64,000 nt of DNA from Armatimonadota bacterium (GTDB lineage: Bacteria; Armatimonadota; SYMT01): contig JAWLHY010000009.1 of the NCBI GenBank assembly GCA_041690135.1, forward strand, positions 256,001 to 320,000. Direction: 5' to 3'. Numbering within the stretch: position 1 is the first letter of the stretch; each line of letters begins with the position of its first letter. A model generated the notes under the pieces. That model did no database searches. It was not told the DNA's origin and worked only from the letters and a program-made list of their open reading frames with translations. Made by a program: the position numbers and the translations under genes. This document shows, piece after piece, positions 24,262 to 44,410 of this stretch.

Positions 24262-24339
24262 TGTTTCACAGGGTAGTCTTAACGCCGGCGAAGTCGAAGC
24301 GGCCCTCCGCACTCGGGTGCGGAAGGCCGCTTCTGTGAG

Positions 24340-26680: not shown

Positions 26681-27241
26681 GTGGTCGTCGAGATGATTGA
26701 GAGTTATATGTCCTGGGAAGGCGGGGTGGATCTGGTAGGCAGCACGGATCCGAACTCCGCACAACCCAATGTCATCATCCACGTGGCGCGCGTGGTTCAC
26801 ACTCCCGTCGGTTCCGCGCCATCCGGACTGGTTCTTTTCCAGCCGGACCCGGCGGCGCCACCCGCCGTGATAGGGTTTGTATCGGCCGATTCCACGGTGG
26901 GTGCCTATTTTGGACCGCACATCTTCGCAGGCACCCCGTTCGAGGCCGCGCCGGTACTGGAAGCGGAGATCCAGATCCAGGAAGACCTGCCAGGAACTGT
27001 CGGAGCGCGGGTCCGTGTGGGTAATTACCTCTTCGAGACACGCCTGTCGCAACTGGCTCCGCTGGAAGTCGTGCACCGGCCCGCGCAGCACTTGCCGTTC
27101 CTCCAGCAGGGGTTGGAAGCGGCCGCCGGCTCCGTGGAAGTCCGGGTGAACGGGAACGCGACTCAGGTGTTCGTTCCCCAAGTGGGGATGTCCGGCGGCC
27201 CAGGTGCTGTCTGGGCGCCGTGCGGCGTCTACGCCCGCTAG
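26681..27241 (+). CDS. Hypothetical protein
   Basis: Coding-like frame (ESYMSWEGGVDL...AVWAPCGVYAR). Start is uncertain (GTG 26681 or ATG 26693). Confidence 0.65.
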   Translation: MVVEMIESYMSWEGGVDLVGSTDPNSAQPNVIIHVARVVHTPVGSAPSGLVLFQPDPAAPPAVIGFVSADSTVGAYFGPHIFAGTPFEAAPVLEAEIQIQEDLPGTVGARVRVGNYLFETRLSQLAPLEVVHRPAQHLPFLQQGLEAAAGSVEVRVNGNATQVFVPQVGMSGGPGAVWAPCGVYAR

Positions 27242-30200
27242 TTGCTCGCCGGTAGGCTCCGCCACTGCCCCAGGAGCGCGAAGGGGGCCCAGTAGTACGG
27301 GTGAGTGTATTTCTTGCCGCGCAGCAGTGAGAGTTGGGCCTGTCGCAGGGCTTCGGCACGCGACTGCGGCTGCCTCTCCCGCTCTTTAGCCAACTCACGG
27401 TAGAAGGCCGTCATCAGGGCGCCGGTGCTTTCGTCCGCTACCTGCCAGTGGCTGGCAACGGTGCCGGCCGCTCCACCGGCGAAAAGGGCCCAGGTCAGGC
27501 CCAGAATACCCTCGCCGCGCACCTTTTGACCGAGGGCCGTTTCGCAGGCGGACATCACGACGAGGTCGGCACTCAACTCCATCTCCGCCAGCTCCCGGGC
27601 CTGCAAGAAGCCGTCGTGGCGTCCGTCACCTGTCAAGACGAGAGAGGAGAACATGGGGGCGGAAGGGTCGAGCATGCCGTGCGTCGCAAAGTGTGCGAAG
27701 CGCGCGCGTCGCAGCAGTTCGTGTGCACGGCTTTCAAGGGCACGCTCTCCCGTCAAAACGACGGCCCCCGACCCGAAATGACGCGAGATGGCGTTCACCT
27801 CTCCTGCCGCCGCCGGAAGCTCGGGAAGACGAGTAGGAAACACCGGGCTTCCGAAGGCTACCAGCGGGAGGCGATCTCCGCGTGCCGGTCTCCGCTGGAG
27901 CATCTCTGTCATCCGGAGTAGGGCCGTGGCGGATGGCGCATAACTGATCGCGTACTTCGCAGCCAGCGGTGTCGCACCCGAGTCGAGCAGGGCGGCAAAA
28001 GCAAGCGTGCTCAACTCGGTATCCGGAACCACGATCAGATGCTCCTTCCCGGCCAGAGCCGGGGCGGCCGGAGCGATGAGCCGCTGGAAGAGCCAACGAC
28101 CCGCAGCTTCATAGTCGCCGCCCGGCGTCGAACACCCCTGCCAGTGCTCGTCAACTCGGTTCGCGAGTTGGGAGCGGGTGACGGACGACCGGTACAGCTC
28201 AATGCGCGGTTGCCCTCGCTTGTCGTGATGGAGCACGAAGAGCAGGGTCTCCCGGTCGAGCACCAGGTAGGAAAGCAGCGCGGACTTCGGCGAGGCCGCG
28301 AGTAGCTTCGTCAGGAGTTCCTGGGGGGCCGCGGGAGAAAACTCGGCGCGGCGCGTGCGGAGGTCCGGAAGCTGCAGGAACAGACGCTCCCGGAACGCCT
28401 GGAGATCGGAGCGGACCTGGTTGCGCTCCTCGGTCAGCTTCTCCAGGGCATCCGTCAGGACTGTCTTATCGATGGCGGTGGAGAGTGAAGCCAGACGACT
28501 CTCCAACGAGGCTTCTCTCCCCTTTTGCTCCGGAGTCATCGAGCGCGTGAGGCGGACGTTCCCGCTCCGAAGGACGTCGACCAGCGCGCGGGCCTTGAAT
28601 TGTTCGGAGACGGCGAAGGCCTGGGCCGTGTCTCCCACTTTCAAATAGCTATCCGCCAGTTTCAGATAGACGGATGCGTGGAGACGGAGAAAGCTGGTCT
28701 GGAGGGAGCCGACTTCGGCCTGCGTGCGGATCTGTTCGATCAACTCCACGGCCTGGCGGAGATGGATGGCTGCCTGGGGGTAGTTTTTCCAATCGCGGTA
28801 GAGATCCCCCTGGTGAATCCGGATCATCTGGAGGACCGCGGAAGCCCCAGCTTCCGCCGCCATCGCGGCTGCCGTCTCGAAATGCCGGGCGGCAGCCGCA
28901 CGGTAATCCGGCTGCCGGCGTTCGCGGAGATCCACGACCGCCAGGCCCATTGTGGCCATCGCTTCCATGCCCCGGTGGCGGTTGGCACGGGCCGCGTCCA
29001 ACATCTCCCGGTAGGCGTCGCGGGCCGCATTCCACGCTTCCATCCGCACGCCGACCTCGCCCAGGTTGCTCCAGATCTGTGGCAGGAACCGGTCGTTCTT
29101 CAGCTCGCTTGCCAGCTTCGCGCTGGCGAAGCCGCTTTCCATGGCCTCATCCAACTGGTTGCGCTCCAGAAGGTAGACGGTCAGGTTGTGCTGGGCAATC
29201 AACTCGTCTTCCTTGCGCCCCAACTTCCGGGCCAGTTGCACGGCTGCCCGGAGTGCTTCGTTGGCTTCCGCGAAGCGCCCGACCACCTGATAGAGATTGC
29301 CCAGGTTTGTGAGGATCGGCCCTTCCGCCGTGAAGTCGTCGATCTCCTGAAAGATGCGGCGGGCCTCTTCGTAGCCGCGCAGGGCTTCGGCGTACCGTTG
29401 GAGGTCCTGCTGCACCGCCGCGATGTTCCCGATGAGGATAGCCTGCGTGCGGCGGTTGCCGAGTTTGCGCTGGAGTTCGAGGGCAGTCTGGTAGGAGGTG
29501 AGGGCGTCGGTGGGTTTTCCGCTGTACTGCTGTGCTAGGCCGAGGTCCTGAAGCGCGGCAGCTTCCTCGGGTGCGTCTTTGATCTTCCGGAAGTGCTCGA
29601 TGGCCAGGTTATATGCCTTGAAGGCCTTATCGTAGTTCGCCGTCGTGCTGTAGATGTGCGCGCTGTTGCGCCAGATCTTCGCGAGACCTTCGTCATCCTG
29701 GAGCTTTTCAAAGAGCTGCCGGGCCTGTTCGTTGTCCCGGAGGGCGACGTTCCACTGCAATTGCTTTCTCCGGACGTAGCCGCGTATCAGGTAACAGTAG
29801 GCGCGCTCGAAGTCACTCTTCATCCACTCGGCGGCCTCAAACGAGAGTTCGACGAAGCGATCCGCCTCCTCTGGTTTACCGGCGTCGGCGAGCTTGTTCG
29901 CCTCTCCGCGCAAGGAATAGGGGAGCCAGCCCCCCGCGAGGTCGGAGTTGCGGTCCAGCAGCGCATGACGGTCCGCGGGGGAAGCGGCTTTCAAAAAGGA
30001 TTGATAGAAGTGCCGCTCCGCCATTCGGAAGCCGTGGAGCTTCCAGGCGCCGGCCTCGAACACGAAGCGGAGATCGAGGGTCTGGGCCCCCTCGACGGGA
30101 GCGCCGTTCTTGGGGTCTTTCGTCTTCCAGTCCAGGCGAATCCGGCCGAAAGCTACTTCTCCATCATCGGACTGGATACGGAACCGGGAGTGGCGGAGCT

Positions 30201-30462
30201 CCACGCCGCGGTCCGCCGCCAGTTCCTGGGTCAGGTAGGTCCAGAATTCCTGGTTGAGAGCCCGGTCCGCGATCATCCAGCGGAACGCCTCTGTCTGGTC
30301 TCGCCGCGCGAACGCTTCGAGGAACCGCTCAACGGCGGTGCGTTGAGCCATCTCCGCCGTCGTCTGGGCCGGCAGCGGTCCGACGAGCGTCAGGATGAGA
30401 AGAACGGCAAAAAGGCTAGCAAACATGCCGGAGTACCGGGGACCATCTGCCAAGCGGACCAT
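27238..30462 (-). CDS. TPR + CHAT (caspase-like clan CD peptidase) domain protein with signal/TM peptide
   Basis: Catalytic HFATHG and MSACETALG; ASHWQV.D and HPYYWAPF; TPR array. Probable ATG 30462 after AGGAAGGA. Confidence 0.93.
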   Translation of the reverse strand: MVRLADGPRYSGMFASLFAVLLILTLVGPLPAQTTAEMAQRTAVERFLEAFARRDQTEAFRWMIADRALNQEFWTYLTQELAADRGVELRHSRFRIQSDDGEVAFGRIRLDWKTKDPKNGAPVEGAQTLDLRFVFEAGAWKLHGFRMAERHFYQSFLKAASPADRHALLDRNSDLAGGWLPYSLRGEANKLADAGKPEEADRFVELSFEAAEWMKSDFERAYCYLIRGYVRRKQLQWNVALRDNEQARQLFEKLQDDEGLAKIWRNSAHIYSTTANYDKAFKAYNLAIEHFRKIKDAPEEAAALQDLGLAQQYSGKPTDALTSYQTALELQRKLGNRRTQAILIGNIAAVQQDLQRYAEALRGYEEARRIFQEIDDFTAEGPILTNLGNLYQVVGRFAEANEALRAAVQLARKLGRKEDELIAQHNLTVYLLERNQLDEAMESGFASAKLASELKNDRFLPQIWSNLGEVGVRMEAWNAARDAYREMLDAARANRHRGMEAMATMGLAVVDLRERRQPDYRAAAARHFETAAAMAAEAGASAVLQMIRIHQGDLYRDWKNYPQAAIHLRQAVELIEQIRTQAEVGSLQTSFLRLHASVYLKLADSYLKVGDTAQAFAVSEQFKARALVDVLRSGNVRLTRSMTPEQKGREASLESRLASLSTAIDKTVLTDALEKLTEERNQVRSDLQAFRERLFLQLPDLRTRRAEFSPAAPQELLTKLLAASPKSALLSYLVLDRETLLFVLHHDKRGQPRIELYRSSVTRSQLANRVDEHWQGCSTPGGDYEAAGRWLFQRLIAPAAPALAGKEHLIVVPDTELSTLAFAALLDSGATPLAAKYAISYAPSATALLRMTEMLQRRPARGDRLPLVAFGSPVFPTRLPELPAAAGEVNAISRHFGSGAVVLTGERALESRAHELLRRARFAHFATHGMLDPSAPMFSSLVLTGDGRHDGFLQARELAEMELSADLVVMSACETALGQKVRGEGILGLTWALFAGGAAGTVASHWQVADESTGALMTAFYRELAKERERQPQSRAEALRQAQLSLLRGKKYTHPYYWAPFALLGQWRSLPASN

Positions 30463-30995
30463 AAGCCGTTTCCTTCCTAACCCACCATCGGCCGGCACGA
30501 CCCCTCGCTCTGGCCACCGGAGTTTCCGGGGGCGCCATCCCGGTTCCTCAATCCCCAGGACTTCGCCAGGGCCATGCCCCGAGAATCTTTCGCTGCTCCC
30601 ACGCCGGATGGTTCCCACACCACTTACCAATATGGCTGCACCACGGGCGACCTATAGCTTGGGGAGTAACGACCCTACCGTTGCAACTTACAACTGCAGG
30701 GAGAGACGCTTCCTTCCTGAGAAGGGAAGCTCTTATCCACCGATGAACGGCTATCTGCAGGCTCCATTTGTGCTTAAGATTAAAGTATTTCGCATATTGA
30801 TTGACTATGCACCAATTCTATTGCGAGTAGGAATAGATCTGGTCCGTTAGAAGGGAAGGCTGATGTGACCGCCGACAATCCGAGGGGGCTTTCGTGACGG
30901 AAGTCAAAGTTGTAATTCGATTTGCAATTATCGGGGCATTCTGAAAAGCCGGAAGGTCAATCCCTTTGCTACGGTGGGAGCCGGGCGAACGGCCT

Positions 30996-32900
30996 ATGAG
31001 CAGTATTGGTGCGATTTTGGATTGGTCCGGAGACGGGCTGCTGGCACGGGGTCTCTGCCGGATGGCGGAGAAACTGGACCGTCGGGGTCGCGATGGCGTG
31101 GACACCTGGTCGGAGGGGAAGGTGGGCCTGGTCCACGCTCATGCCTGGGTTCTTCCGGAAGAAGTGGGGGAGAGGCAGCCGATCACCTCCCCATGCGGTC
31201 GGCTGCGGATTTCGGCGAACGCCCGGATCGACAACCGGCCGGAATTGCTCGCGGAGCTGGTGGGTCTTGGGATCCAAGCGCAGTCCAGCGATGCACAGTA
31301 CATCCTGGCGGCCTATCAGCGATGGGGAGAGGACTGCGTTCAGTACCTGGTGGGGGACTTCGCATTTGCCCTGTGGGATGCGGATCGGGAGATACTCCTC
31401 TGCGCGCGCGATGCGTTGGGCGTGCGACCGCTGCACTACTCCCGGTCCGGCGGAAGCGTAATCGTTGCGAGTGAAACCGGAACCCTTCTGGCGGCTCTGC
31501 CGCAAACGCCCCACTTCAACCGTGCATTCCTCGAAGATCTGCTGGCCAATGCCTGGGACCGTTCGTTGCACGAGACGGCGTACCAGGGGGTCTACCGGGT
31601 TCCCCCAGGCTACCGGATCACTTTCCGCCGGAATGACGTGCGCCTGGTGCGCTACTGGGATCCGAAGGCGGTTGGGTCCTCGGTTGAATTCGGTGCGCCG
31701 GAGTGCTTCGAGCGTTTCCACGCCCTCCTCTCGCGGGCGGTTTCGGATCGACTCCGGGCCATCGATCCAGTGGGAGTTGCCGTGAGTGGTGGGATGGACT
31801 CCTCCTCCATCGCCTGCCTGGCACAAGAACTGCAACCCAAACAGGATGTCCAAGTGCCAGTTTGGTTGCTTACAACGATTTATGAATGCACTCCGGGCGC
31901 GGATGAGCGGGATTACTTCGAGGCGGTGGCCGCACGCTGCCCTGCCCTGCAAGCAGAGCGAATCCTTTCGGATGACTGCTGGTCGCTCCGGGAGTTTGGG
32001 ACGGACGGTGGATTTCCGCTGGATGAGCCTGAGATTGGCCTGAACCGCACGCTCCTGCTGCGCCTGATCCGCCAGGCGCGAGCGAAGGGATGCCGCGTGA
32101 TGCTGAATGGTTGCGGCGGTGATCAGGTACTGGGGGGCGAGCCGTACCACCTGCCGCACCTGCTGCAGGATGTCGGACTTGCGCGCCTGTGCGCGGAGTT
32201 GCCGCACTTCCGGCGGTGCAGTCGCCGTCCTCTCTGGTGGATTCTGCTGGCGGCCTATGGATTGCCGCTCTTCGGCGGGGAGATCTCCTCCCGCTTGCGG
32301 AGTTTGCTCCGGGGGCGAGAAATGGATGCCGCGGGGTTACCGCTCCGTCGCCCCAGTGCGGCGCCGCTTGCCCTGCCGGAGCCGTTGCAAGCGCCGGAGT
32401 TCTCCACGCGAGCGGCTGCGGAGAGTTACCGGCAGTTGACGCACGGACTCTTCGTGGCCAGTCTCCAGGAGTTCGAAATCATCGGGGGGGAGACAGGCGT
32501 GGAGTGGCGCTTTCCGTTCCTGGATCGCCGCCTGGTCGAATTCATGTTGGGCGTACCTGCCGCTGCGCGATTCGCCGCCGGGTGGCCCAAGCGCATGGTG
32601 CGAGAAGGCTTGCGCGGCGTACTGCCGGAGAAGGTGCGTTTCCGGCAGGGCTACGCTCACTTTAGCGGCTTGATCGAACGCGGACTGCGGGAGCGTGAGG
32701 TGCCGCGGCGTCAGGAATTGTTGCGGGACCCTCTGCTGGTGTCGTGTGGCCTGGTCGAGCGGGAGCGCCTCGCGCGGGCCTGGAGTTACTGGGAGGATCG
32801 GCCGCAAGTGAACTGCTTGCAGCCGTTATTCTCCTCTCTTTTAGTGGAAGCGTGGCTGCGCCATTTTTCGCCCGGGGCTCTCGCCGCGCTGCAAAGTTGA
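30996..32900 (+). CDS. Lasso peptide cyclase (isopeptide bond-forming, asparagine-synthetase-like C protein)
   Basis: No N-terminal catalytic Cys (MSSIG instead of MCGI). ARIDNR.EL, GDFAFALWD, RDALGVRPL, PP-loop SGGMDSS, GGDQ, RFPFLDRRLVEF. A lasso precursor follows 46 nt downstream. Confidence 0.9.
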   Translation: MSSIGAILDWSGDGLLARGLCRMAEKLDRRGRDGVDTWSEGKVGLVHAHAWVLPEEVGERQPITSPCGRLRISANARIDNRPELLAELVGLGIQAQSSDAQYILAAYQRWGEDCVQYLVGDFAFALWDADREILLCARDALGVRPLHYSRSGGSVIVASETGTLLAALPQTPHFNRAFLEDLLANAWDRSLHETAYQGVYRVPPGYRITFRRNDVRLVRYWDPKAVGSSVEFGAPECFERFHALLSRAVSDRLRAIDPVGVAVSGGMDSSSIACLAQELQPKQDVQVPVWLLTTIYECTPGADERDYFEAVAARCPALQAERILSDDCWSLREFGTDGGFPLDEPEIGLNRTLLLRLIRQARAKGCRVMLNGCGGDQVLGGEPYHLPHLLQDVGLARLCAELPHFRRCSRRPLWWILLAAYGLPLFGGEISSRLRSLLRGREMDAAGLPLRRPSAAPLALPEPLQAPEFSTRAAAESYRQLTHGLFVASLQEFEIIGGETGVEWRFPFLDRRLVEFMLGVPAAARFAAGWPKRMVREGLRGVLPEKVRFRQGYAHFSGLIERGLREREVPRRQELLRDPLLVSCGLVERERLARAWSYWEDRPQVNCLQPLFSSLLVEAWLRHFSPGALAALQS

Positions 32901-32946
32901 AGGAACCCGGAGGAGCAACCCACCGGGACCAAGGGATGAAAGTACG

Positions 32947-33147
32947 ATGGAAATGGAACAAAAGGGAACGCCTGTCAAAACCCTGGCTCAGCCGGCGTAC
33001 GCGGGATCGGACACTGCGGCGCAGATGCCCCGGAAGAAGGAATACCGTCCACCGCTCCTGGAGCGCCTGGGTCCCCTGGAAGAATTGACCCAGGGTGGAA
33101 ATGGCGCCTTTTCCGACGCCCCCCTCGCCGGCACCCGCGCTTTCTAG
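32947..33147 (+). CDS. Lasso peptide precursor (A); predicted core GGNGAFSDAPLAGTRAF at 33094-33144
   Basis: Leader Y-x-x-P-x-L (YRPPLL), then LG.L.ELT with Thr at -2. Core starts with Gly and has Asp at position 8. Confidence 0.93.
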   Translation: MEMEQKGTPVKTLAQPAYAGSDTAAQMPRKKEYRPPLLERLGPLEELTQGGNGAFSDAPLAGTRAF

Positions 33148-33338
33148 GGTTCCCCCGCCCCGTCCGACGAGTTCTTTCACTGTTTTGGTCGCGTTTGTAG
33201 GCGACCCGCTCCCCTTCCACTGCGCCCCTGGCAGCCAGGCTCGGAACAGTTCCCCAGGTTTCCGGCCCGCCTGCCGAACGGCCACAATTTTGGACCGGCG
33301 GCCCGATTTCCCCGGCAGCGGTTCGAGGAACGACTGAA

Positions 33339-36300
33339 ATGGGTTACGTGCGGAAGTTAGCCTGGCTGCTATTGCTGGGCGTAGTCTCTATGCTGATCAC
33401 GACCGGAGCGATCAGTTCCGAGTCTCTGGGTTCGGCCGCGAGACGCGCCGCGGCGCTGCGTCCGGTCCGAAGAGGCCGCGGCGGCTTTCTGGATTCCGGG
33501 CCGAAAATGGCCGAGACCCGGCGGAAACTGGCGAACCTGTGGCGCAACCGGGTGATCCGCGAGCGGATCCGCCGCCGCCTGGATCTCCGCACTCCGGCTC
33601 CGACGGCCGGCCGTCCCCGCCAGCGCCGGCCGCTGGTGGACGGTCCCGCTCCCGGGGAGTACGTTTACTTCCCGAGTGGCGCAGTCGACGACGGTCGGTT
33701 CCTCACAATTGCGGGCACCACGGGTTCCGCCACTCTTGCGACGGAAATCAAGGTGAAGCTCGCGGCGCCCAGCACCGCGGGAACGCTCGAGATCGGGATC
33801 TTTGACGGGGATACCAGTGGACTGTGGGACCAGGGCACCGGAGCGCTGGAATATACGCTGTATGAGGATAAGGACGGCAACGCGAGTGGAACTACGCAAG
33901 TAGGGCAGTGGTCCGGCTCCGCGATGTCGGACAACACCTGGTTCAGCACCTCGATCAGCACCGGCCCGGGCGCGCAGGCGCCCAGTGGCAACTACTTCTA
34001 CTACCTGCGGGTGCGCCTGGTCGATACGACCTCCATTACGCTCAGCAGCTTCAAGATCCGGACCAATGCCAGCGTCCGCCTGGAACCCCAGAACTCGTTC
34101 AACGTCATCGCCCCGGTCTCTTCGGAGGCGGCCGCGCAGATCATCTATCCCGATTGGCCCTCGCTCACGCCGACGACCTACGACGGCTCGTGGAATTTCT
34201 ACGCCTATGTTCCGAATTCCACGACCTTCTTCGACGTGTGGGATGGCGACCTTGACTTCGGTACTTACAACGGCAGCGTTAAGGACACGGACGACCAGAA
34301 CACAACGACCATCCCCGCCTGGGCGACCGGCACGCCGGCCAACCTGGACGGCGCCTCTTCCGGGTTGAATGCTTCCTCCGGGAATCCGCCGGACGACGAC
34401 ACCCACGCGGTTTTCCGGCGCTCGCCGGACGTCGTTTACGACGTTACGGACCCAAACGGCATTCGGTATTTCAACGGCAACCCTTCCGGAAATCTGGAGT
34501 GGGAGAACTTCCGCATCGATACGGCGCCGTTCAACGCGAGCAACATGGACTACCACGCCGACGAGCTTCCTCCTGGCGTGTATGAGGTTCATATCGACGG
34601 CCTCGACATCAACAACCTGGATGCCTTCCGCTTCGATTTCGACCTCCTGGGGGTCGACAAAGACGGGAACCCCGTCCGCCCCCTGCTGCCCTACATCGTG
34701 GGCGATACGGTGTGGATCGACCAGGTGGCGGACAATGCCTTCGGTGGATTGGGTTCGGGAGAGGGCCACGCAAACGTTACCGTGGAACTGCTCGACGCCA
34801 ACGGGTTCACCCTGGATACGACCACCACGGATGCGCAGGGGCAGTATAGTTTCCCGGTAGAAGCAGGGACCTTTACCGTCTACGTTTCACCGGCGAACTT
34901 CCTTCCGACCGGACCTCTTGCGGGGTACCGGAATATCGCGGGCGGCTCCAACACGCTCACCTACACGGTAGTCAACGCTAATGTCGACACGTACGACTTC
35001 GGGTACCGGGCGGAGGGTCCCGACCGCCTGGGGGATCGGGTGTGGCTTGACGTAGACGGGGATATGACACAAGACTCCGACGAACCCGGCATAGGGGGGG
35101 TCACGGTCATTCTCCGGGATAACGGCGGCGTGCAACTCACGACGACGGTGACGAACGCTAACGGCACGTATCTGTTCACCGGGCTGGCCGCCGCGACTTA
35201 CCAGGTGCAGGTGGACACTACCACCCTGCCGCCCGGCCTGACCCAGACGCACGACCTGGACGGCACGGGAACAGCGCACCTCGCGACCGGCGCCCTGGTG
35301 GGTGGCACCGAGAAGCTGGACTTTGACTTCGGCTATCGGGGGACCGCCTCGATCGGCGACCGGGTCTGGAACGATGTGAACAACTCCGGCGTCCAGGACA
35401 GCGACGATCTCGGCATTGGCGGAGTGAAGTTGGTGCTTACGGGCGATTTCAACGGAGACGGCACCGCGGACCTGACCGCTACCGATACCACCGACTCCAC
35501 CGGTGCCTACCTCTTCGACCGGTTGCCCAGCCTCGACACCGGGACCTATCCGGGTGCGAAATACACGGTGAAGGTGGATACCAACACGCTGCCATACGGC
35601 CTCACCTTGATTTCCGATCCGGACGACAGCCCATCCGTGGCCACGCCCAACCGGTCGGAAGTGACCAGCCTATCCGTCGGACAGGCGAACCTGGTCCAGG
35701 ACTTCGGCTACCGCGGCGGCGGCTGTCTCGGCGGCACCCTCTGGAAGGATGACGATCAGGACGGGAAGATCGATACCGGCGAGACGGTCTTCAGCAACAT
35801 CACCGTGACGCTCTCGGGCGATCTGAACCTGGACGGCGTGTTCGGTGAGTATGCAACGAGCCAGTTGACGGATGCCGACGGCAAGTACTCGTTCACAAAT
35901 CTTCCCGGCGGACGTTTCAAGATCGTGGTCACGGCGTCACAATTGCCTTCCGGCGCCACCTGGAGCCCGACTTACGATGTAGACGGTACCGGCACTGCGA
36001 GCGAGGCGACCCTGATGCTCCACTCTCGGGTCTGTCGGACGGACATCGACTTCGGTTACCGGGCCACAGCCACCGTGACGGGACTGGCCGGAACCGTGTG
36101 GCATGACACCGGCGTGGACGGGATTCTCGATCCGGGTGAGGATGGCATTCCGAATGTCACCGTCAGCATCAGTGGCCCGACCAGCGCCAGCATGCAGACG
36201 GATGCGGACGGCAAGTACAGCTTCCTGGGAATCCCCGCCGGAACGTACACCGTGACGGTGACCCATGCGGAAGTGCCGACCGCCTACAACACTCCCACCG

Positions 36301-38036
36301 GTGACTACGACGGCCTGGGCACCCAGAACACCGCCTCCGTGGCGGTACCCGCGGGCACGACCGTGCAACCTGTGAACTTCGGCTACGTTGGCGTTTGCAA
36401 CCTTGGGAACCGGGTTTGGGACGACCTGGACTTTGATGGAATCCAGGACACCGCGGAATTCGGTACCGGCACGGAGCCGGGGATCAGCGGCGTGACCGTC
36501 CAACTGTACTCGGCGACTACGCTCACCTTCATCGCCAGCACACCGACGGACTCTAACGGGAACTACCAGTTCCAGAACCTGCTACCGGGCGCCTACTACG
36601 TCAAGTTCATCGCCCCTTCGGTCAACCACGTGTTCAGTCCCAGCCTGGAAGGGTCGAACCGCGCGGTGGATAGCGATCCCGATACCGTGACCGGGGAATC
36701 GGGGGTGGTGACCCTGACGGAGGGCACCACGAACCTGACGGTGGACTGCGGCTTCTACGACATCTCCAAGGGCCAGAGCGTGGGCGACCTGGTGTGGATC
36801 GACGCCAACGCGAACGGGGTGCAGGACGCCGGAGAAGCCGGTGTGGCCGGCGTGACGGTGGAACTCTACCGCCAGAGCACGGGCGCGCTGTTGCAAACCA
36901 CCGTCACCAACAGCGACGGCAACTATCTGTTCACGGGGGTGGGGGTCGGCCGGCACTATGTGAAGTTCTACCTGCCGAACGGCTTCGCGTTCACCCAGGC
37001 ACTCCAGGGTGGCGACACGACGAAGGACAGCAATGCCAACGCCTCGACCGGCATCACCGCAGAGTTCCAGGTAAACGGCGGAAACGACGTTTTCACCATC
37101 GACTGCGGCCTGCTGTCGCCGATGATCGAAGGCTGCGTGTGGTATGACCAGAACCGGGACGGGGTGTTCCAGTACACGGAATCGGGCCTGGGGGGGGTGA
37201 CGGTCCAACTTTACAGTGGCGCAACGCTCCTGAAGACCACCACCACTTCGGGCGGCGCCTTTACTTTCACTGGTGTGGCCGCGGGTGTTTACACCGTGAA
37301 GGTGGTCACTTCTTCCCTTCCCGCGGACAAGACGATCGCGACCGTGGACTCGGACGACATCCAGCCGCCGTTGCTCACCCCCCACGAGGTGATCGTGGAC
37401 GTGGAAGCACTGCCCACGGGTACGGACGGGTCTGTTTTCGTGGGGCCGAAAGCATGCTTCGGCTATTCGGTAGCGCCGCGGCTCAATACGGCCAGCAACT
37501 ACCGGTCGCAGACGCAGGGCGGTTGGGGGGCCGAACCCCGCGGCGGGAACGCCGGCGGCTTCCTCCATGCCAACTGGACCACGGTCTACCCAACGGGCAC
37601 GCTGGTAGTGGGGAAAGAGGCGGGCGCCAGTGGTTCGTTCTGGAATATCTTCCTGAACGGTGCCCAGGCGGTCACCAACTTCCTCCCGCAGGGCGGAACG
37701 GCGAGCGTCCTGACGCAGAACCACACGAACCCGCTCAGCACGGAAGCGGGGGTCCTCGCCGCGCAACTGGTCACCGCCCAGATTAGCCGCGACTTCTCGG
37801 CCGCAGGGGTGACGAAGAGCGGCTTGGGCAGCCTGAAGCTGACAAACCCGCCCAACGCGAGCAACCCTTTCAAGGGTTACTCGCTGGATAAGATCCTCGT
37901 CGTCGGCAACCGGGTGCTGTCCGGCAACCTGAACGCTCTGCCGAATGGCGCTACGATCACCCATCTCAACGAAGCCCTGGACTACTTGAACAACTGCTTC
38001 GTCGATGGGATCGAGGACAAGGGCTACTACCGCTAG
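33339..38036 (+). CDS. Large secreted protein with 8 SdrD-B-like (CnaB-type Ig) repeats
   Basis: Eight G(D/G/T/N/C)x(V/L)W.D starts with DxNGxQD-type loops, TD..G.Y.F..L motifs and DFG(Y/F) ends. Signal peptide present. Confidence 0.9.
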   Translation: MGYVRKLAWLLLLGVVSMLITTGAISSESLGSAARRAAALRPVRRGRGGFLDSGPKMAETRRKLANLWRNRVIRERIRRRLDLRTPAPTAGRPRQRRPLVDGPAPGEYVYFPSGAVDDGRFLTIAGTTGSATLATEIKVKLAAPSTAGTLEIGIFDGDTSGLWDQGTGALEYTLYEDKDGNASGTTQVGQWSGSAMSDNTWFSTSISTGPGAQAPSGNYFYYLRVRLVDTTSITLSSFKIRTNASVRLEPQNSFNVIAPVSSEAAAQIIYPDWPSLTPTTYDGSWNFYAYVPNSTTFFDVWDGDLDFGTYNGSVKDTDDQNTTTIPAWATGTPANLDGASSGLNASSGNPPDDDTHAVFRRSPDVVYDVTDPNGIRYFNGNPSGNLEWENFRIDTAPFNASNMDYHADELPPGVYEVHIDGLDINNLDAFRFDFDLLGVDKDGNPVRPLLPYIVGDTVWIDQVADNAFGGLGSGEGHANVTVELLDANGFTLDTTTTDAQGQYSFPVEAGTFTVYVSPANFLPTGPLAGYRNIAGGSNTLTYTVVNANVDTYDFGYRAEGPDRLGDRVWLDVDGDMTQDSDEPGIGGVTVILRDNGGVQLTTTVTNANGTYLFTGLAAATYQVQVDTTTLPPGLTQTHDLDGTGTAHLATGALVGGTEKLDFDFGYRGTASIGDRVWNDVNNSGVQDSDDLGIGGVKLVLTGDFNGDGTADLTATDTTDSTGAYLFDRLPSLDTGTYPGAKYTVKVDTNTLPYGLTLISDPDDSPSVATPNRSEVTSLSVGQANLVQDFGYRGGGCLGGTLWKDDDQDGKIDTGETVFSNITVTLSGDLNLDGVFGEYATSQLTDADGKYSFTNLPGGRFKIVVTASQLPSGATWSPTYDVDGTGTASEATLMLHSRVCRTDIDFGYRATATVTGLAGTVWHDTGVDGILDPGEDGIPNVTVSISGPTSASMQTDADGKYSFLGIPAGTYTVTVTHAEVPTAYNTPTGDYDGLGTQNTASVAVPAGTTVQPVNFGYVGVCNLGNRVWDDLDFDGIQDTAEFGTGTEPGISGVTVQLYSATTLTFIASTPTDSNGNYQFQNLLPGAYYVKFIAPSVNHVFSPSLEGSNRAVDSDPDTVTGESGVVTLTEGTTNLTVDCGFYDISKGQSVGDLVWIDANANGVQDAGEAGVAGVTVELYRQSTGALLQTTVTNSDGNYLFTGVGVGRHYVKFYLPNGFAFTQALQGGDTTKDSNANASTGITAEFQVNGGNDVFTIDCGLLSPMIEGCVWYDQNRDGVFQYTESGLGGVTVQLYSGATLLKTTTTSGGAFTFTGVAAGVYTVKVVTSSLPADKTIATVDSDDIQPPLLTPHEVIVDVEALPTGTDGSVFVGPKACFGYSVAPRLNTASNYRSQTQGGWGAEPRGGNAGGFLHANWTTVYPTGTLVVGKEAGASGSFWNIFLNGAQAVTNFLPQGGTASVLTQNHTNPLSTEAGVLAAQLVTAQISRDFSAAGVTKSGLGSLKLTNPPNASNPFKGYSLDKILVVGNRVLSGNLNALPNGATITHLNEALDYLNNCFVDGIEDKGYYR

Positions 38037-38042
38037 GGAGCA

Positions 38043-40091
38043 GTGGACGCAATGAGGATTCAGCAGTACCTCACACGAAGACAGGCGGACCGGGAGGGGA
38101 AGGGTAGCTTTCCTCTCCCGCCGCGACGGCTCCATCCGGCTTCCCTGTGCGCCATGGGGATGGGCCTGGGTTTGACCTACCTGGGGGCACAGCCCGCCGT
38201 GTCGGAGACGGCGCCTAACCCCTCCTGGAGCAAACTCTACAACGGCGCCGGCAACTTCTACGACTATGCCCGCGCGACCACCGTGGACACCGCCGGCAAC
38301 GTTTACGTGACGGGCAGTTCGGATGGGGACTACGTTACCGTCAAATACGGTCCCACCGGGTCTCAACTCTGGGCGGCCCGTTACGATGGTCCCCGCCACG
38401 GTCTCGATACCCCTACTGCCATTGTTGTGGACAGCGCCGGAAACGTCTACGTCACCGGCGCTTCCTACGGGGGAAACCCCGCCCTGGCCGGGACGGACTT
38501 CGACTTTGCCACCGTCAAGTACGACCCCGCTGGGGATGAACTCTGGGTCGTCCGTTACGACGGACCGGCCGGACGGGAAGATGCGGCCGCGGCGATGACC
38601 CTCGACTCCGAGGAGAACCTGTGCGTGGCCGGCACCTCTTCCACCCTCGCCACGGGCAAGGACTTTACCCTGATCAAGTACTCCCCGGCCGGTGAGGAAC
38701 TCTGGACCTCGCGGTACGACGGCACCGGTGGCGCCGACACCCTGGCGAGCCTGGCGATCGGGAGCGACGATACCCTGGTGGTCACGGGCGAGTCGTGGGG
38801 TGGAGTTTCCCTGATGGACTTCGCCACCGTAAAGTTCAGTGCGGCGGGTACGCGACTGTGGGCCGCCCGTTTTGACGGCAACCTTGCCGCGGATGCAGCG
38901 GTCGCGGTGGCGGTCGACAGCACCGGAGCGGTCTACGTGACCGGCGCCACCGATGGGGGGCCCGCGGGCGCCGGAGGGAGCGAGCTGGACTACGCCACCC
39001 TAAAGTACACGGACCAGGGCGGACAGGTGTGGCTCAAGCGTTATGACAGTGGAAGCCGTAACCTGGACGTTCCGGCCGCTCTGGCGGTGGACGTTAATGG
39101 AAACGTGTTCGTCACCGGCCGGTCCCGGACCCCTACTGGCGGGTACGGCTTTCTGACCCTCGCCTATAACACGGGCGGGACCCAGTTGTGGTCGGATCGG
39201 TATGACGCCAGCGGCAACCGGGATGATTACCCCACCGGTCTCGTCGCCACCGGGGTCGGTACCCTCTACATCGCGGGCCAGGCGACGGCCGGCTCGGGGC
39301 GGGTGGGCTTCGCCACCCTCAAGTACAGTCTCGCCGGCAGTCGACTCTGGGTGGCGCGGTATGACGGACCCACGAACGGCGATTCCGCGCCGGTCGCCAT
39401 GGCCCTCCAGGGAGACGATGCCCTGGTGGTGGCCGGAACCGCCTGGGGGACCAGCGGCACCCAGGACTACGCCACGCTGAAGTATCTCATCGGCGCCTCG
39501 GCTCCCCCGTCCGCCCCGAGCGGTCTCGTCGGCGCTCCCACTTCCGCCGGCGACGTTCTCCTGACCTGGCAGGACACCAGCGGGGATGAAGCGGGGTTCC
39601 GGATCGAGCGAAAACTCGGCCGTGCCGACTACGTGGAGGTCGGCACGGTAGGCGCCGGGGTTACCAACTTCGTCGACATGAGCGCCGCACTCCGGTCGAA
39701 GTATCGCTACCGGGTAGTGGCCTTCAATGCCCTGGGGAGTTCCGCGCCTTCCAACGAGTTGGCGGTGAATCTTCCCGCTCGCCTGACCACGCGTATCTCC
39801 GTTTCGCCGACGAAGGTGAAGTTCCCCCGAGTACGGATCGGCAGTACCGGAAGCAAGTCGGTCACGGTGCGCAACCTCGGCAGCACCATCCTGACCGGAC
39901 GCATAGTAGCGCCCTCGACTCCGTTCAGTGCGGCGAGTGAGGAGTTCACGTTGTATCCCCGGGCTCGGAAGCAAGTGTCCGTGCAGTTTGCCCCTACCGC
40001 CACGGGTGATTTCACCGGTGAGCTGCAGGTGGAGAGCAACGATCCCAAGAAGCCGGTGGCTCCGGTGAAACTTTCGGGTAAAGGCTTCTAA
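38043..40091 (+). CDS. SBBP-type beta-propeller (8 blades) + fibronectin type III + choice-of-anchor D/ASH-like Ig domain
   Basis: Repeats W...Y(D/N)G...AVD..GNVYVTG....DFATVKY. FN3 PSAPSGL...LTWQD.S.DE.GFRIER...YRYRVVAFN. C-terminal V.N.G...F.P...G...SND. Confidence 0.88.
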   Translation: MDAMRIQQYLTRRQADREGKGSFPLPPRRLHPASLCAMGMGLGLTYLGAQPAVSETAPNPSWSKLYNGAGNFYDYARATTVDTAGNVYVTGSSDGDYVTVKYGPTGSQLWAARYDGPRHGLDTPTAIVVDSAGNVYVTGASYGGNPALAGTDFDFATVKYDPAGDELWVVRYDGPAGREDAAAAMTLDSEENLCVAGTSSTLATGKDFTLIKYSPAGEELWTSRYDGTGGADTLASLAIGSDDTLVVTGESWGGVSLMDFATVKFSAAGTRLWAARFDGNLAADAAVAVAVDSTGAVYVTGATDGGPAGAGGSELDYATLKYTDQGGQVWLKRYDSGSRNLDVPAALAVDVNGNVFVTGRSRTPTGGYGFLTLAYNTGGTQLWSDRYDASGNRDDYPTGLVATGVGTLYIAGQATAGSGRVGFATLKYSLAGSRLWVARYDGPTNGDSAPVAMALQGDDALVVAGTAWGTSGTQDYATLKYLIGASAPPSAPSGLVGAPTSAGDVLLTWQDTSGDEAGFRIERKLGRADYVEVGTVGAGVTNFVDMSAALRSKYRYRVVAFNALGSSAPSNELAVNLPARLTTRISVSPTKVKFPRVRIGSTGSKSVTVRNLGSTILTGRIVAPSTPFSAASEEFTLYPRARKQVSVQFAPTATGDFTGELQVESNDPKKPVAPVKLSGKGF

Positions 40092-40108
40092 CTTGGAGGT
40101 CCGCCCGA

Positions 40109-40615
40109 GTGAGGAAACGGTCCCCACGCTCTACCGGTTGCCGTTCGGCCTTTGTCAGCTTCGCCTGGGGTGAGCCGGATTGCACGGTCCGCAGCGGGAA
40201 CACCTCCGATCGGGAACTCGCCTGGCGTTTGCTCCCACCGCACCTTTGCCTCCAGGCTGCGACAGCCGCGCAGGTTGTGCCCGTCAGCGAGCAGGATGAG
40301 GCTCGGGGATCTCTCTGGCCGGTGAAAGACCTGCTCTTCGGAGAGTTCGAGGGGGAACTCCTGCTGGCCCGCGACGAAATCGGTGAGGGGTATCGCCTCT
40401 CCGGTATTGGGGCGGAGTTCTGGCGGTCCATCCTTGCGGGTGAGCCCGCCGCCGAAACGGCGGAACGCTTGAGCCGCGTCTACGACGTAGACGCCGGTAC
40501 CGTTTGCACGAATTTGGAAGGCTTCACCCGCACGCTGCTCCAGCAAGGTTGGCTGCAGCCTGCCGGTGCGGCGGATGGGGATGGGCAGGAAGTCCCGAGC
40601 ATTCCGGAGAGGTAA
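40109..40615 (+). CDS. PqqD family RiPP recognition element (lasso B1/E protein); real start may be GTG 40277
   Basis: EFEGELLL....GEGYRLSGIGAEFWRSI.....ETAERLSRVYDVD.....LEGF...L.QQGWL matches the PqqD 3-strand/3-helix pattern. Confidence 0.85.
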   Translation: MRKRSPRSTGCRSAFVSFAWGEPDCTVRSGNTSDRELAWRLLPPHLCLQAATAAQVVPVSEQDEARGSLWPVKDLLFGEFEGELLLARDEIGEGYRLSGIGAEFWRSILAGEPAAETAERLSRVYDVDAGTVCTNLEGFTRTLLQQGWLQPAGAADGDGQEVPSIPER

Positions 40616-40748: not shown

Positions 40749-41606
40749 ATGAAACGTCGGGATTTTCTCATCGGTTCTGCCGGCCTTCTGCTGGCGGCGG
40801 ATCGCGCGTGCGGCGAGCCACGCGTGGTGCGCGATGTCGTTTATGGCGAGCCTGGCGGACACCGCCTGCTCATGGACATCTACCGTCCGGAGACGCCCGG
40901 GCCGCACCCCGCCGTGGTGCTGGTCCATGGCGGTGGCTGGCTGGGAGGCAGTAAGGCGGGGCACCAGGGCACGGGGATGCTGCTGGCGCGGCACGGGTAC
41001 GTTGCTTGCGCCATCAATTACCGCCTGGCACCCCAATATCCGTATCCCGCCGCCTTTGATGATTGCCAGAGGGCCGTGCGGTGGGTCCGCGCGCACGCCG
41101 GGGAGTACGGGATCGATCCGAAGCGAGTCGGGGCGATGGGGGATTCAGCGGGAGGCCACCTGGTGGCCCTGATCGGGGTGCGGCACACCCGCGACAATAG
41201 CGATCGGGAGCTCTCGCGGTTCCGGAGCCGTCCTGATGTGGTGGTCGCCTATTACGGCGCCTTCGAGCTCGTGCGGATGTGGGATATCGAGATGGCCCAT
41301 CGCCCGCTGACCGCCTGGCTCGGGGGTCCGCCCGATCAACACGCCAAGGTATACCGGGAGGCCTCACCCGTGGCGATGGTCACTCGCAAGTCGCCGCCGT
41401 TCCTGATCCTGCACGGCAACCGGGACATGGTCAATCCGCTGGAGCAGTCCGAGTTGCTACATGCGGCTCTCCGAAAAAAGGGTGTCACGAGTGAGATGGT
41501 GGTCCTGGACGGTGCGGGGCACGGCTGGGCCCTGGACTCCCCGCATGGGAAACAGGCCGAGAAGGCCGTGCTGACCTTCCTGGACAGGCACCTACGACGC
41601 AAATAG
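40749..41606 (+). CDS. Tat-secreted alpha/beta hydrolase (HSL/BD-FAE-type esterase)
   Basis: MKRRDFL twin-arginine signal, HGGGW, GDSAGG, HG..D..., GAGHG. Confidence 0.92.
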   Translation: MKRRDFLIGSAGLLLAADRACGEPRVVRDVVYGEPGGHRLLMDIYRPETPGPHPAVVLVHGGGWLGGSKAGHQGTGMLLARHGYVACAINYRLAPQYPYPAAFDDCQRAVRWVRAHAGEYGIDPKRVGAMGDSAGGHLVALIGVRHTRDNSDRELSRFRSRPDVVVAYYGAFELVRMWDIEMAHRPLTAWLGGPPDQHAKVYREASPVAMVTRKSPPFLILHGNRDMVNPLEQSELLHAALRKKGVTSEMVVLDGAGHGWALDSPHGKQAEKAVLTFLDRHLRRK

Positions 41607-41806: not shown

Positions 41807-41895
41807 GGAAACACCTTGGTGCAGAAGTCTTCTGGTTTGACGGTCCTTTTGCTTGTGGCTGGAGCTGTTGATGCACGTAGGCGGAATGCCCGGGG

Positions 41896-41942
41896 AGCCG
41901 ACGGAGGTCGGCTTTGCTTTGTGTAGCCGCGGCTTGAGCCGC
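41896..41942 (+). repeat. REP-like element, copy 2 (inverted relative to copy 1)
   Basis: AGCCGACGGAGGTCGGCT-TTGCTTTGT-GTAG-CCGCGGCTTGAGCCGC; same layout as copy 1 with compensatory stem changes. Confidence 0.8.
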
Positions 41943-42122
41943 TTGGGAACCCGCACCAGCCCTTGGGCGTTACCTCCTGTCGCACACGGAGCAATGAGGG
42001 TCTGCGGCTGGACGGGTGGTGAGCCGCGTGAGTATCCCGGCTACACATTGTGGAACCGACATCCACACCCTCCTCCCTGGGTACCCGGGCGTAAACCTCC
42101 GTCGGTGGGGAACAACAAGCGG

Positions 42123-42794
42123 TTATTTCTTGACAGAAGCTTCGTCGGCGAACTGCAGCGCCTGGTGAAGCGCTCCCGTCCACATCTCCCACGTGAGCAC
42201 GCCGGTGTTGGTATTCTGCCTGCTCGGGTGGTAGCTGTCCACCAGGGTCGGTTCTCCCTCACCCAGATCGTGGACCGCGCCGTGGCGGAAGGGAAAGGCG
42301 GAGAGCCGGTGTCCCCGTAGCTTCAAGTAAGTATCGTGCGCGAGCTTGCCCAGGGCCAGCACCACGCGTGTGTTGGCGATCAGCTCTAACTCGCGCTCCA
42401 GGAAGGGGCGGCAGGCATCGAACTCCGCGCCGGTGGGCCGGTTCTGCGGCGGCACGCACCGCACGGCGTTGCTGATCCACACGCCGCGAAGCTCCAGGGG
42501 CTGATCCCCGCGGGTACAGTTGGGTTCGGAGCAGACCCCCAGCTCATGGAGCGCTCCCCAGAGCCAGCGCCCGGAATCGTCTCCCGTGAACACCCGCCCG
42601 TGGCGGTTGGCGCCATGGTAACCAGGGGCAAGGCCGAGGATGAACAGGCGCGCCTCCGGATCGCCGAAACCGGAGACGGGGCGAGACCAGTATTCCGGAT
42701 GCTTCTCCCGGGATTCCTGGAGGAAGGCGGCCAGACGGTCGCACCGGGTGCAGCCGTGGATCTCTCCGGCCAGCTTCAGGATCGTGTCATTCAC
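42123..42794 (-). CDS. Uracil-DNA glycosylase family 5 (UdgB-like, [4Fe-4S])
   Basis: CxxC..., GLAPGYHGANRHGRVFTGDDSG, VRCVPPQNRP, C.PFL and SYHPSRQNT. Confidence 0.93.
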   Translation of the reverse strand: MNDTILKLAGEIHGCTRCDRLAAFLQESREKHPEYWSRPVSGFGDPEARLFILGLAPGYHGANRHGRVFTGDDSGRWLWGALHELGVCSEPNCTRGDQPLELRGVWISNAVRCVPPQNRPTGAEFDACRPFLERELELIANTRVVLALGKLAHDTYLKLRGHRLSAFPFRHGAVHDLGEGEPTLVDSYHPSRQNTNTGVLTWEMWTGALHQALQFADEASVKK

Positions 42795-43834: not shown

Positions 43835-44410
43835 TTATCCGATTCGAGGCTTCTTCTGGGCGCCGCTGGGATGCGGATCGAAGTCGGCGGGCCAGAGGGT
43901 GCCGGTGTCGTAGATGGCGTCGCTGATCTCGGCGCGGTGCATCCGGGCATTACGGAAGTCGGTGCCGCGCAGGTCGGCGCCGCGCAGGTTCACGCCGCGC
44001 AGGTCGGCGCCGCGTAGGTCCGCGCCGGAGAGGTCCGCCATCCGGAGGTCCGCCTTATGCAGGTCGGCGCCGCGCATCGACGCGTGCTGCAGGTCCGCGC
44101 CCACCAGGGCGATCCCGCTCAGCTTCGATTCGATCAGCGAGGCTCCGGCCACCGTGTGCAGAAGCGCGCCTGTGCGCCGGTGCGAAATCATTGTCGTGGG
44201 AGTCTCGGACTTCTCCTCGACCACGGCGACCGTGGCGGCGGCCCTTTTCTTGGCCGCGCCGGTCTTGGCCCACATCTGGAAGCGCCGGGAACTCTGGCAC
44301 TCGGTGCATACCATAGCAACGCTGTTAAACCCGTTCCAGGTCGCCGGCGTCACCGAAACCATCGGCACATCTTCCTTGTCGTTTCCACACAGGGTGCAGG
44401 TTCGGATCAT
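43835..44410 (-). CDS. Pentapeptide repeat protein with N-terminal CxxC...CxxC zinc-ribbon
   Basis: A(D/N)LxG repeats (ADLRG, ADLSG, VNLRG); CTLC and CTEC. Confidence 0.88.
   Translation of the reverse strand: MIRTCTLCGNDKEDVPMVSVTPATWNGFNSVAMVCTECQSSRRFQMWAKTGAAKKRAAATVAVVEEKSETPTTMISHRRTGALLHTVAGASLIESKLSGIALVGADLQHASMRGADLHKADLRMADLSGADLRGADLRGVNLRGADLRGTDFRNARMHRAEISDAIYDTGTLWPADFDPHPSGAQKKPRIG

Follow-up and report, generated by a model that had tools for sequence, protein, structure and literature searches.

A stretch of 64,000 nucleotides (nt) from an Armatimonadota bacterium (contig JAWLHY010000009.1 of assembly GCA_041690135.1, positions 256,001 to 320,000 of the forward strand), referred to here as the window, carries five open reading frames (ORFs) on its plus strand in the order lasso cyclase (C), precursor (A), SdrD_B repeat protein, SBBP propeller protein, and PqqD-type protein. 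Calling the ORFs reproduced the positions, the order and the common strand given in an earlier reading of the sequence (the original prediction), in which these genes were taken for a split lasso-peptide system that is functionally tied to its surface proteins. Our analysis leads us to a different view, which we hold to be on balance probable: C, A, and the PqqD-type ORF form a genuine set of lasso-peptide genes, unusual in subtype and rearranged in this lineage, and the surface-protein genes are passengers. The PqqD-type ORF carries the RiPP recognition element (RRE; RiPP, peptide that is made by the ribosome and modified post-translationally) of the lasso type. By sequence, it is a member of a protein family of approximately 330 to 425 amino acids (aa) in which a domain with a phosphoribosyltransferase (PRTase) fold is followed by a linker and an RRE, and it is one from which the PRTase-like domain is absent. 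Below, B1 denotes the RRE protein of a lasso cluster and B2 its transglutaminase-like leader peptidase; the hidden Markov models (HMMs) for B1, B2, the linker, and the PRTase-like domain were built in this analysis.

Results

The cyclase and the precursor

C matches the Pfam families Asn_synthase (PF00733; E value, 1.6e-40), GATase_7 (1.4e-27), and GATase_6, and its best NCBIfam model is the lasso cyclase model NF033535, at 361.5 bits, compared with 219.8 bits for asparagine synthase and 185.3 bits for the exosortase-linked amidotransferase. The protein starts with MSSIG and therefore lacks the glutaminase residue Cys2. It agrees with all 30 invariant columns and with 32 of the 34 near-invariant columns of 36 relatives. 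On these comparisons, C is an intact homologue of lasso cyclases, and the gene set has the AsnB-homologous macrolactam cyclase of a lasso cluster. For comparison, at least 79 related loci were collected by scanning genome contigs; their cyclases are 24 to 35% identical to C, none belongs to its clade, and the genome of the window is not represented among them. In a FastTree phylogeny of 132 sequences, which has many long branches, C falls into a group of 53 with 100% support, separate from all 79 listed loci; the members of this group are database matches only, with 28 to 52% identity to C.

The product of the A gene matches the lasso leader model NF033521 (lasso_leader_L3) at 22.5 bits, above the cut-off of 19; an alternative ATG at 33025 would give a product of 40 aa. 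Its leader reads Y-R-P-P-L-L-E-R-L-G-P-L-E-E-L-T-Q, which contains the motif Y33-x2-P-x-L-x3-G-x5-T48-Q49 with Y33, P36, L38, G42, and T48 all present. The predicted core of 17 residues (33094-33144) begins with Gly and has Asp at position 8. When A is aligned with 25 candidate precursors of related loci, its Tyr, Pro, Gly, and Thr(-2) columns and its Asp8 register coincide with theirs, an invariance that is partly by construction, since the candidates were chosen by the motif. No other plausible leader motif is found in the six frames of the window. A leader motif, Thr at position -2, one of Gly, Ala, Ser, or Cys at core position 1, and Asp or Glu at positions 7 to 9 are thus all in place, and A has, by its sequence, the features of a canonical-looking precursor.

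The PqqD-type ORF and its long-form relatives

The PqqD-type ORF matches PF05402 at 31.6 bits (cut-off, 23.4) and NF033536 at 17.9 bits (cut-off, 80). It begins with GTG, 8 nt downstream of a GGAGG sequence, and an in-frame stop codon lies ahead of it at 40079-40081. A HMMER search with this ORF over 1.84 billion representatives gave 99 matches, of which approximately 21, including most of the closest, are 327 to 425 aa long and carry the RRE at the C terminus. The roughly 240 to 290 residues that precede the PqqD domain in these long forms belong to no Pfam or NCBIfam family. When the long forms were compared with the window by tblastn, they showed 30 to 44% identity over about 135 to 160 residues, and the similarity extended upstream of the PqqD domain, with alignments beginning at 40094-40154, directly after the SBBP stop codon. 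The linker of the family is near-invariant in F-x-W-x-E-P-D and W-R-x2-P-P-x-L-C-L, and at these conserved positions the window ORF carries F, W, E, P, W, P, C, and L. An HMM of the linker from which the window sequence was left out matches the window ORF with an E value of 5e-14 and has no match among the 17,728 ORFs that the 79 listed canonical loci contain (best E value, 0.019). The 56 codons upstream of the recognized domain (40109-40276), which the original prediction had treated as a spacer and which were also considered as non-coding sequence (G+C content at second codon positions, 0.64), are accordingly conserved coding sequence of the fusion family.

The N-terminal domain of the long forms is conserved in P-R-G-G, V-D-D-C-A (within VVVDDCA-x2-G-x-RF), G-x-R-F, and additional columns. 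Of the 55 columns that reach at least 85% conservation across 22 long forms, 19 lie in the linker and RRE, and the window ORF keeps 16 of the 19. An HMM for the PRTase-like domain itself finds nothing in the window ORFs or in the six frames at an E value of 0.01 or below. The short forms of the family that were looked up come from contigs of 518 to 4265 nt, and two of them fall into the 90% cluster of a long form (P0253/P0351 and P0254/P0352). The 168-aa form of the window, however, is a real shortening, because it is set within a contig of 366 kb.

The family is un-named and so far undescribed; a literature search that combined PqqD, RRE, or lasso peptide with phosphoribosyltransferase, with subscription papers and supplements outside its coverage, returned nothing relevant. 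A word-index search with the RRE ORF retrieved only the 168-aa query itself and no close relative, and a search of the ESM Atlas with the family member P0274 gave only clusters labelled PqqD family. Other architectures among the HMMER matches include tandem arrays of two or three PqqD domains (P0257 and P0248), a CxxCxxCC motif joined to PqqD (P0255), and PqqD joined to a TylF-type O-methyltransferase (P0325).

Structure predictions

For the family representative P0249, AlphaFold2 gave a model with a predicted local distance difference test score (pLDDT) of 92.4 and a predicted template modelling (TM) score of 0.91. Its C-terminal domain resembles TbiB1, a lasso B1 protein, in complex with the leader (5v1v; TM score, 0.91; 30% identity), and its N-terminal domain resembles type I phosphoribosyltransferases such as XGPRT (TM score, 0.5 to 0.6). 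In the AlphaFold2 model of the window protein, residues ~70 to 150 have pLDDT values of >90, and the six best matches in the PDB are lasso B1 chains (5v1v, 5v1u, and 6jx3; TM score, 0.90), with PqqD proper (5sxy and 3g2b) ranking below them. In an alignment with 44 lasso B1 proteins, the whole domain is covered with a gap of one column, and the near-invariant Tyr, Leu, Trp, and Leu residues are kept. The original prediction of a B1 gene is therefore borne out for the lasso-type RRE, whereas the gene is not a plain B1 gene and is instead a shortened member of the PRTase-fold-RRE family.

Modelling of the RRE with its leader had been suggested as a check. The predicted complex of the RRE and the 40-residue precursor scored 0.39, compared with 0.01 for the best control, with at least 73% of contacts shared between runs and a partner pLDDT of at least 51. 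Of 157 solved complexes, 116 reached the mark that it passed, as did 2 of 215 mismatched pairs; at scores of 0.60 or below, only 18 of the 157 reached it, and both passing mismatches fall in this range. Since similar B1-leader complexes have already been solved, the pass may reflect memory of, or likeness to, these, and the model gives weak backing to binding of the A leader by the RRE.

Contigs shared by the fusion family and the cyclase clade

The size in nt and the database source of contigs were compared between family members and clade cyclases or the SBBP ortholog. Three of 37 family-member contig sizes equal those of clade-cyclase contigs with matching sources: P0287 (family) and P0058 (cyclase) at 3090 nt (JGI), P0290 and P0021 at 7579 nt (Logan), and P0322 and P0023 at 7412 nt (Logan). 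At least three such matches arose in 0.4% of trials in which sizes were jittered by up to 300 nt. In addition, the long form P0258 (338 aa) and the SBBP ortholog P0133 both come from contigs of 7417 nt (Logan and ENA), a coincidence with a chance of 0.6%. A tblastn search of plasmids with C and one long-form protein returned no member of the clade or of the family. Taken together, the sizes suggest three cases in which a family member and a cyclase of the window's clade lie on one contig.

These coincidences bear on the explanation that the PqqD-type ORF has nothing to do with C and A and belongs to the SdrD_B/SBBP unit or to another pathway, leaving C and A as an orphan pair. The ORF does lie 7 kb from A, and its one apparent conserved neighbour is the SBBP gene. 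Furthermore, as stated in the RRE-Finder report, only ~4,000 of almost 8,000 lasso-type discrete RRE matches, or about half, co-occur with a peptidase and a cyclase (PMC7470986). On the other side stand the three apparent cases of contig sharing with clade cyclases, the ranking of lasso B1 chains ahead of PqqD proper, and, as weak support, the complex predicted with the A leader. We regard this explanation as very improbable.

A wider proposal is that the clade of at least 53 cyclases works with the PRTase-fold-RRE fusion protein instead of, or beside, B1 and B2 and that in this genome the fusion has been cut to a bare RRE and linked to the secreted pair. We put this forward tentatively and think it rather doubtful as it stands. 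The PRGG/DDCA/G-x-RF site could add a modification of the ribose-phosphate type. Alternatively, the PRTase-like domain could dock on the GATase-like domain of the cyclase; in PurF, a PRTase domain docks on a GATase-like domain in this way.

The missing peptidase and related loci

The original prediction held that B2, an ABC exporter, and a classical isopeptidase are absent from the window, and Pfam, the B2 HMM, and a comparison of hydrolases were all negative. Transglut_core3 (PF13471) was found by Pfam neither in the 52 large ORFs of the window nor in the small un-named ones. The B2 HMM, which was started from five B2 genes in related loci that Pfam had confirmed and was then iterated, recognizes a B2 in 56 of the 79 listed loci; its second- and third-round versions reached a best E value of 0.22 among 886 stop-to-stop ORFs of the window, and a B2 HMM search of the whole-frame translations reached a best independent E value of 6. 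A minus-strand candidate at 53533-53712 scored 14.9 bits (E value, 0.0011) with the five-sequence seed and sank to noise with the larger models, and five un-named ORFs considered as a hidden B2 (41853-42320, 26450-27265, 23824-24312, 43914-44543, and 44550-46109) matched no family at an E value of 0.1. No ABC_tran domain was found in the scanned ORFs of the window.

By the HMMs, 59 of the 79 listed loci have a B1 and 56 a B2; the 54 that have both most often carry them in a contiguous B1-B2-C run. Five of the 59 loci with B1 (L025, L040, L041, L056, and L075) have no B2 within the fetched flanks of 3.7 to 10 kb on each side. All five are set among polysaccharide genes (Polysacc_synt_2, Wzz, GT1/GT4, Bac_transf, Wzy_C, and PS_pyruv_trans); L025, L056, and L075 also have NTP_transf_5 genes, L025, L040, L041, and L075 have weak, below-cut-off matches to HprK-related kinase A, and L025, L040, and L075 have ABC transporters. 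Two of them, L040 and L075, combine a cyclase above the NCBI cut-off with precursor candidates that match the motif. Among these loci, a missing neighbouring B2 is thus a minority state but not a unique one.

Several loci of the collection show further variation. L012 (6647-6817, plus strand, and 9668-9823, minus strand) and L058 (14680-15513, minus strand) illustrate that some related loci encode two precursor candidates, and in L012 and L017, a distance of 5 to 6.5 kb separates the cyclase from a B1-B2 pair on the other strand, which shows that moderately split lasso loci exist. Within the window, 20 kb upstream of the cyclase, positions 1-11258 hold a locus of the polysaccharide or O-antigen type (epimerase, PIG-L deacetylase, WbqC, DegT aminotransferase, GT4, Wzy_C ligase-like, and GT2 genes), which recalls the polysaccharide genes around the B2-less loci.

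The absence of B2 raises the question of whether the locus is a dead relic, in which production ended once the adhesin genes had been inserted and the PRTase-like domain, along with any B2, had been lost, while C, A, and the RRE ORF have not yet decayed. The PRTase-like domain is presumably needed, because many of its columns are conserved in at least 85% of the 22 long forms, and it is missing here, as is B2 from all 64 kb. Moreover, the PF05402 score of the window RRE (31.6 bits) lies below those of 8 of 10 scored B1 proteins of related loci (51 to 68 bits), and the ORF found no close relative in the word search. However, C, A, and the RRE ORF are free of frameshifts and stop codons, the invariant columns of C and 16 of 19 columns of linker and RRE have been kept, and the RRE ORF begins with GTG behind GGAGG. 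In addition, since 5 of the 59 listed loci with B1 share the lack of a neighbouring B2, two of them with precursor candidates, this lack is no proof of death. A dead relic is, in our judgement, unlikely.

The secreted-protein genes and the gene order

The distance from the stop codon of A to the start of the PqqD-type ORF is 6961 nt, in line with the ~7 kb of secreted-protein genes described originally; the lasso genes are thus not contiguous, with two unrelated genes lying between A and the RRE ORF. C and the RRE ORF lie 7.2 kb apart, a C-to-B1 distance that is reached in only one of the 59 listed loci with B1. The features of the region are collected in Table 1.

Table 1. Features of the gene set and its surroundings, with positions in the window
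Feature	Position	Strand	Basis or remark
Secreted S8 subtilase	24340-26343	-	Same operon as TPR-CHAT protein
TPR and CHAT (caspase-like) protein, 1130 aa	27238-30630	-	Divergent from cyclase
Lasso cyclase (C), AsnB-like macrolactam synthetase homologue, 634 aa	30996-32900	+	Pfam, NCBIfam
Candidate precursor (A), 66 aa	32947-33147	+	NF033521 and translation
SdrD_B/CarboxypepD_reg repeat protein, 1565 aa, signal-peptide-like N terminus	33339-38036	+	Pfam, translation
SBBP beta-propeller protein with FN3-like and choice-of-anchor-D/ASH domains, 679 aa	38052-40091 (alternative start, 38043)	+	Pfam, NCBIfam
Junction of SBBP stop codon and RRE ORF	40092-40108		Site where the ~240-codon PRTase-like part of the family would lie
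PqqD/RRE ORF, 168 codons	40109-40615	+	Linker, ~40150-40300; RRE HMM match, 40325-40552
Secreted esterase/lipase-type alpha/beta hydrolase, 285 aa, outside the pathway	40749-41606	+	Pfam, NCBIfam, PDB sequences
First plus-strand terminator-like hairpin after the gene set	41894-41915	+	Consensus scan; number of sites equals shuffle expectation

The SdrD_B and SBBP genes are probably one unit, because the SBBP gene starts 6 to 15 nt after the SdrD_B stop codon. The repeat protein has eight SdrD_B stretches and a G+C content at third codon positions (GC3) of 0.81, which is native-like. Its N-terminal part (~350 aa, 33339-34700) and C-terminal part (~235 aa, 37326-38033) belong to no Pfam family, and a search of PDB sequences found no relative of either. 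For the SBBP protein, whose family is huge, only one full-length ortholog was found, P0133 (52% identity, 97% coverage), on the 7417-nt contig mentioned above. GC3 is 0.70 to 0.74 for C, A, and the RRE ORF and 0.79 to 0.81 for the two adhesin genes, within a spread of 0.59 to 0.90 across the window; codon usage is compatible with the proposed history but is not telling.

The tie that had been proposed between the lasso genes and the surface proteins amounts to a single functional and co-transcribed unit, C-A-SdrD-SBBP-RRE, whose peptide would act on, or be displayed by, a surface protein and whose peptidase would come from elsewhere in the genome. Several observations are in its favour. The five genes lie on one strand, and a simple consensus scan for terminator-like sites was negative in both intergenic gaps, as the original prediction had it; the folding of both gaps was no better than that of shuffled sequences (z, +1.2 each), and the first terminator-like site on the plus strand comes only after the esterase gene, at 41894. 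The adhesin genes resemble native ones in their codon usage, C, A, and the RRE ORF are intact, and one relative seems to hold the SBBP ortholog together with a long-form RRE gene. In contrast, relatives of the SdrD_B or SBBP protein occur in none of the 79 listed lasso loci, and the three contigs that appear to carry a clade cyclase and a fusion protein are too small to hold the 6.75-kb adhesin pair as well; on the contig of 3090 nt, only ~650 nt are left beyond these two genes. Adjacency with secreted genes is also cheap, because repeat and propeller genes of this kind are common in the window (FG-GAP/ASPIC twice, Kelch, and PQQ_2), and with a single full-length ortholog from so large a family, the order seen in one relative may simply reflect common descent. 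A co-transcribed functional unit is, on this evidence, distinctly improbable, and the surface-protein genes are most likely passengers.

The proposed functional tie is therefore not supported. What was found comes close to compact relatives with a lone, recent insertion of adhesin genes, given the absence of SdrD_B and SBBP relatives from the listed loci and the three small contigs; the idea of a lone recent insertion is weakened by the relative that seems to share the SBBP-RRE adjacency and by the native-like codon usage of the adhesin genes. Similarly, conservation of the gene order in relatives, which had been raised as a question, is absent from the 79 listed loci and apparent, for the SBBP-RRE part, on the one contig of 7417 nt.

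Neighbouring genes

The esterase/lipase-type hydrolase encoded downstream of the RRE ORF has a twin-arginine translocation (Tat)-like signal, MKRRDFL; its longest call, from 40566, overlaps the RRE ORF, and the ATG at 40749 is the likely start. It was rejected as an isopeptidase or leader peptidase on account of its esterase/lipase type and Tat-like signal, and no lasso isopeptidase is named among its best 60 PDB sequences or its NCBIfam matches. Lasso isopeptidases are proteins of ~700 aa that combine a propeller with an S9 peptidase of the prolyl-oligopeptidase type and are encoded next to the cluster.

An operon on the minus strand (24340-30630), divergent to the cyclase and 366 nt from its start, encodes the TPR-CHAT protein, a 271-aa ORF without a family, and the S8 subtilase. 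Neither the TPR-CHAT protease nor the subtilase was retained as a substitute leader peptidase; nothing in the data points to such a role, and relatives of the two, like those of the esterase, occur in none of the 79 listed loci.

The window has a G+C content of ~64%, and its Pfam families include DUF1559 with an N-methyl signal, DUF1501, and PSCyt1/PSCyt2/PSD1, which are families typical of Planctomycetota and by whose names the genome would be of planctomycete type. At 16445-22512 (plus strand), a gene for a TPR protein is followed by one for an FG-GAP/ASPIC-UnbV protein, twice in tandem, an arrangement that suggests duplication of a two-gene module. A gene 6 kb downstream (46259-48568, plus strand) encodes a PQQ-dependent dehydrogenase that has a cytochrome c domain at its C terminus. 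No pqq biosynthesis genes were seen among the scanned ORFs of the window, and the PqqD-type ORF thus lies outside any PQQ synthesis operon.

Discussion

The reading that we favour, a genuine lasso-peptide gene set rearranged in this lineage, implies the following history, which is drawn in each of its steps from the coincidences in contig size and source. The usual locus of the clade would be compact and consist of the cyclase, the precursor, and the PRTase-fold-RRE protein. In this lineage and in at least one relative, an insertion would have brought the SdrD_B and SBBP unit to its place between A and the RRE gene, and the PRTase-like two-thirds of the RRE gene would have been lost afterwards in this genome. 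By analogy with established lasso biochemistry, the RRE would bind the Y-x2-P-x-L-x3-G motif of the leader, a peptidase encoded outside the window would cut after Thr-Gln, and C would adenylate Asp8 and join it to Gly1, which would give a ring of eight residues and a tail of nine. We put the chances at about even that the set, given such an outside peptidase and a dispensable PRTase-like domain, still makes a product; otherwise, it would be a young relic.

Several points weigh against this reading. C scores 361.5 bits and so falls short of the NCBI cut-off of 525 for lasso cyclases (NF033535); the cyclases of canonical loci likewise do so, with 352 for L072 and 420 for L054. Co-location was deduced from equal contig size and source alone, and family members on contigs of 82,377, 893,286, 36,792, and 23,065 nt found no size match, a result that is hard to read because the databases are clustered at 50% and 90%. 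Residues 1 to 60 of the window RRE protein model poorly, and because its start context is good, the shortened ORF, instead of being a remnant, may function as an RRE by itself. Finally, the apparent SBBP-RRE adjacency in one relative, the native-like codon usage of the adhesin genes, and the terminator-free gaps would also fit a functional link to the surface proteins.

The gene set shares features with several known systems. Like the canonical split-B clusters such as Tbi (5v1v/5v1u), it has an AsnB-like cyclase without Cys2, a precursor of the form Y-x2-P-x-L-x3-G-x5-T-x with Gly1 and Asp8, and an RRE whose best fold match is TbiB1. It differs from these clusters in the lack of B2 in 64 kb, in the 7 kb between A and the RRE gene, and in the family-specific linker of its RRE, which is absent from the B1 proteins of the 79 listed loci. 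The five B2-less loci likewise combine a lasso-cyclase homologue and a lasso-type PqqD protein with no nearby B2; their B1 proteins, however, are short and encoded close to C, and none has the linker or the PRTase-like domain.

Fusion of an RRE to a second domain has precedents. In the fused B proteins of proteobacteria, as described in the accessible portions of two reports, an N-terminal RRE is joined to a C-terminal transglutaminase-like peptidase (PMC12070363 and PMC7470986). The long-form relatives also combine an RRE and a second domain in one polypeptide but reverse the domain order and have a PRTase fold in place of the transglutaminase-like one, while the window ORF has no partner domain at all. 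In the long-form consensus, a conserved His that could pair with the conserved Cys residues is not evident. Fusions of an RRE to a glycosyltransferase and to a glutathione S-transferase are named in the RRE-Finder work; in these, as in the long forms, the RRE is joined to the fold of a small-molecule transferase, and a fusion to a PRTase fold is not named in the sections of that work covered here (PMC7470986).

Departures from the A/B1/B2/C rule are known as well. The triculamin cluster has neither B1 nor B2; in place of a leader it has a follower, and its cyclase is truncated at the N terminus. A few non-canonical cyclases in Planctomycetota are noted in the same source (PMC12070363). The window resembles triculamin in departing from the rule but has a canonical leader, a full-length cyclase, and an RRE. 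Dispersed or B2-less clusters are not treated in the portion of a further review that was open to us (PMC13352647).

That the RRE gene is a shortened fusion gene alters what is to be regarded as missing from this locus. The lasso mining tools RODEO and antiSMASH require C, an RRE, and a B2 peptidase close together, and loci like that of the window are consequently skipped in mining. A link to the surface proteins, for which the evidence is thin, would matter more if true: a lasso peptide would then have a role in structure or signalling. The window itself amounts to a natural experiment, in which the extra domain is gone and the genes lie apart, and it can show whether domain and adjacency are needed. 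If the PRTase-fold-RRE protein is indeed the standard partner of this cyclase clade, it would represent a new architecture of lasso maturation and define a branch of lasso peptides with an unknown step, possibly a new tailoring reaction or a novel mode of leader presentation, together with a pool of unexplored peptides.

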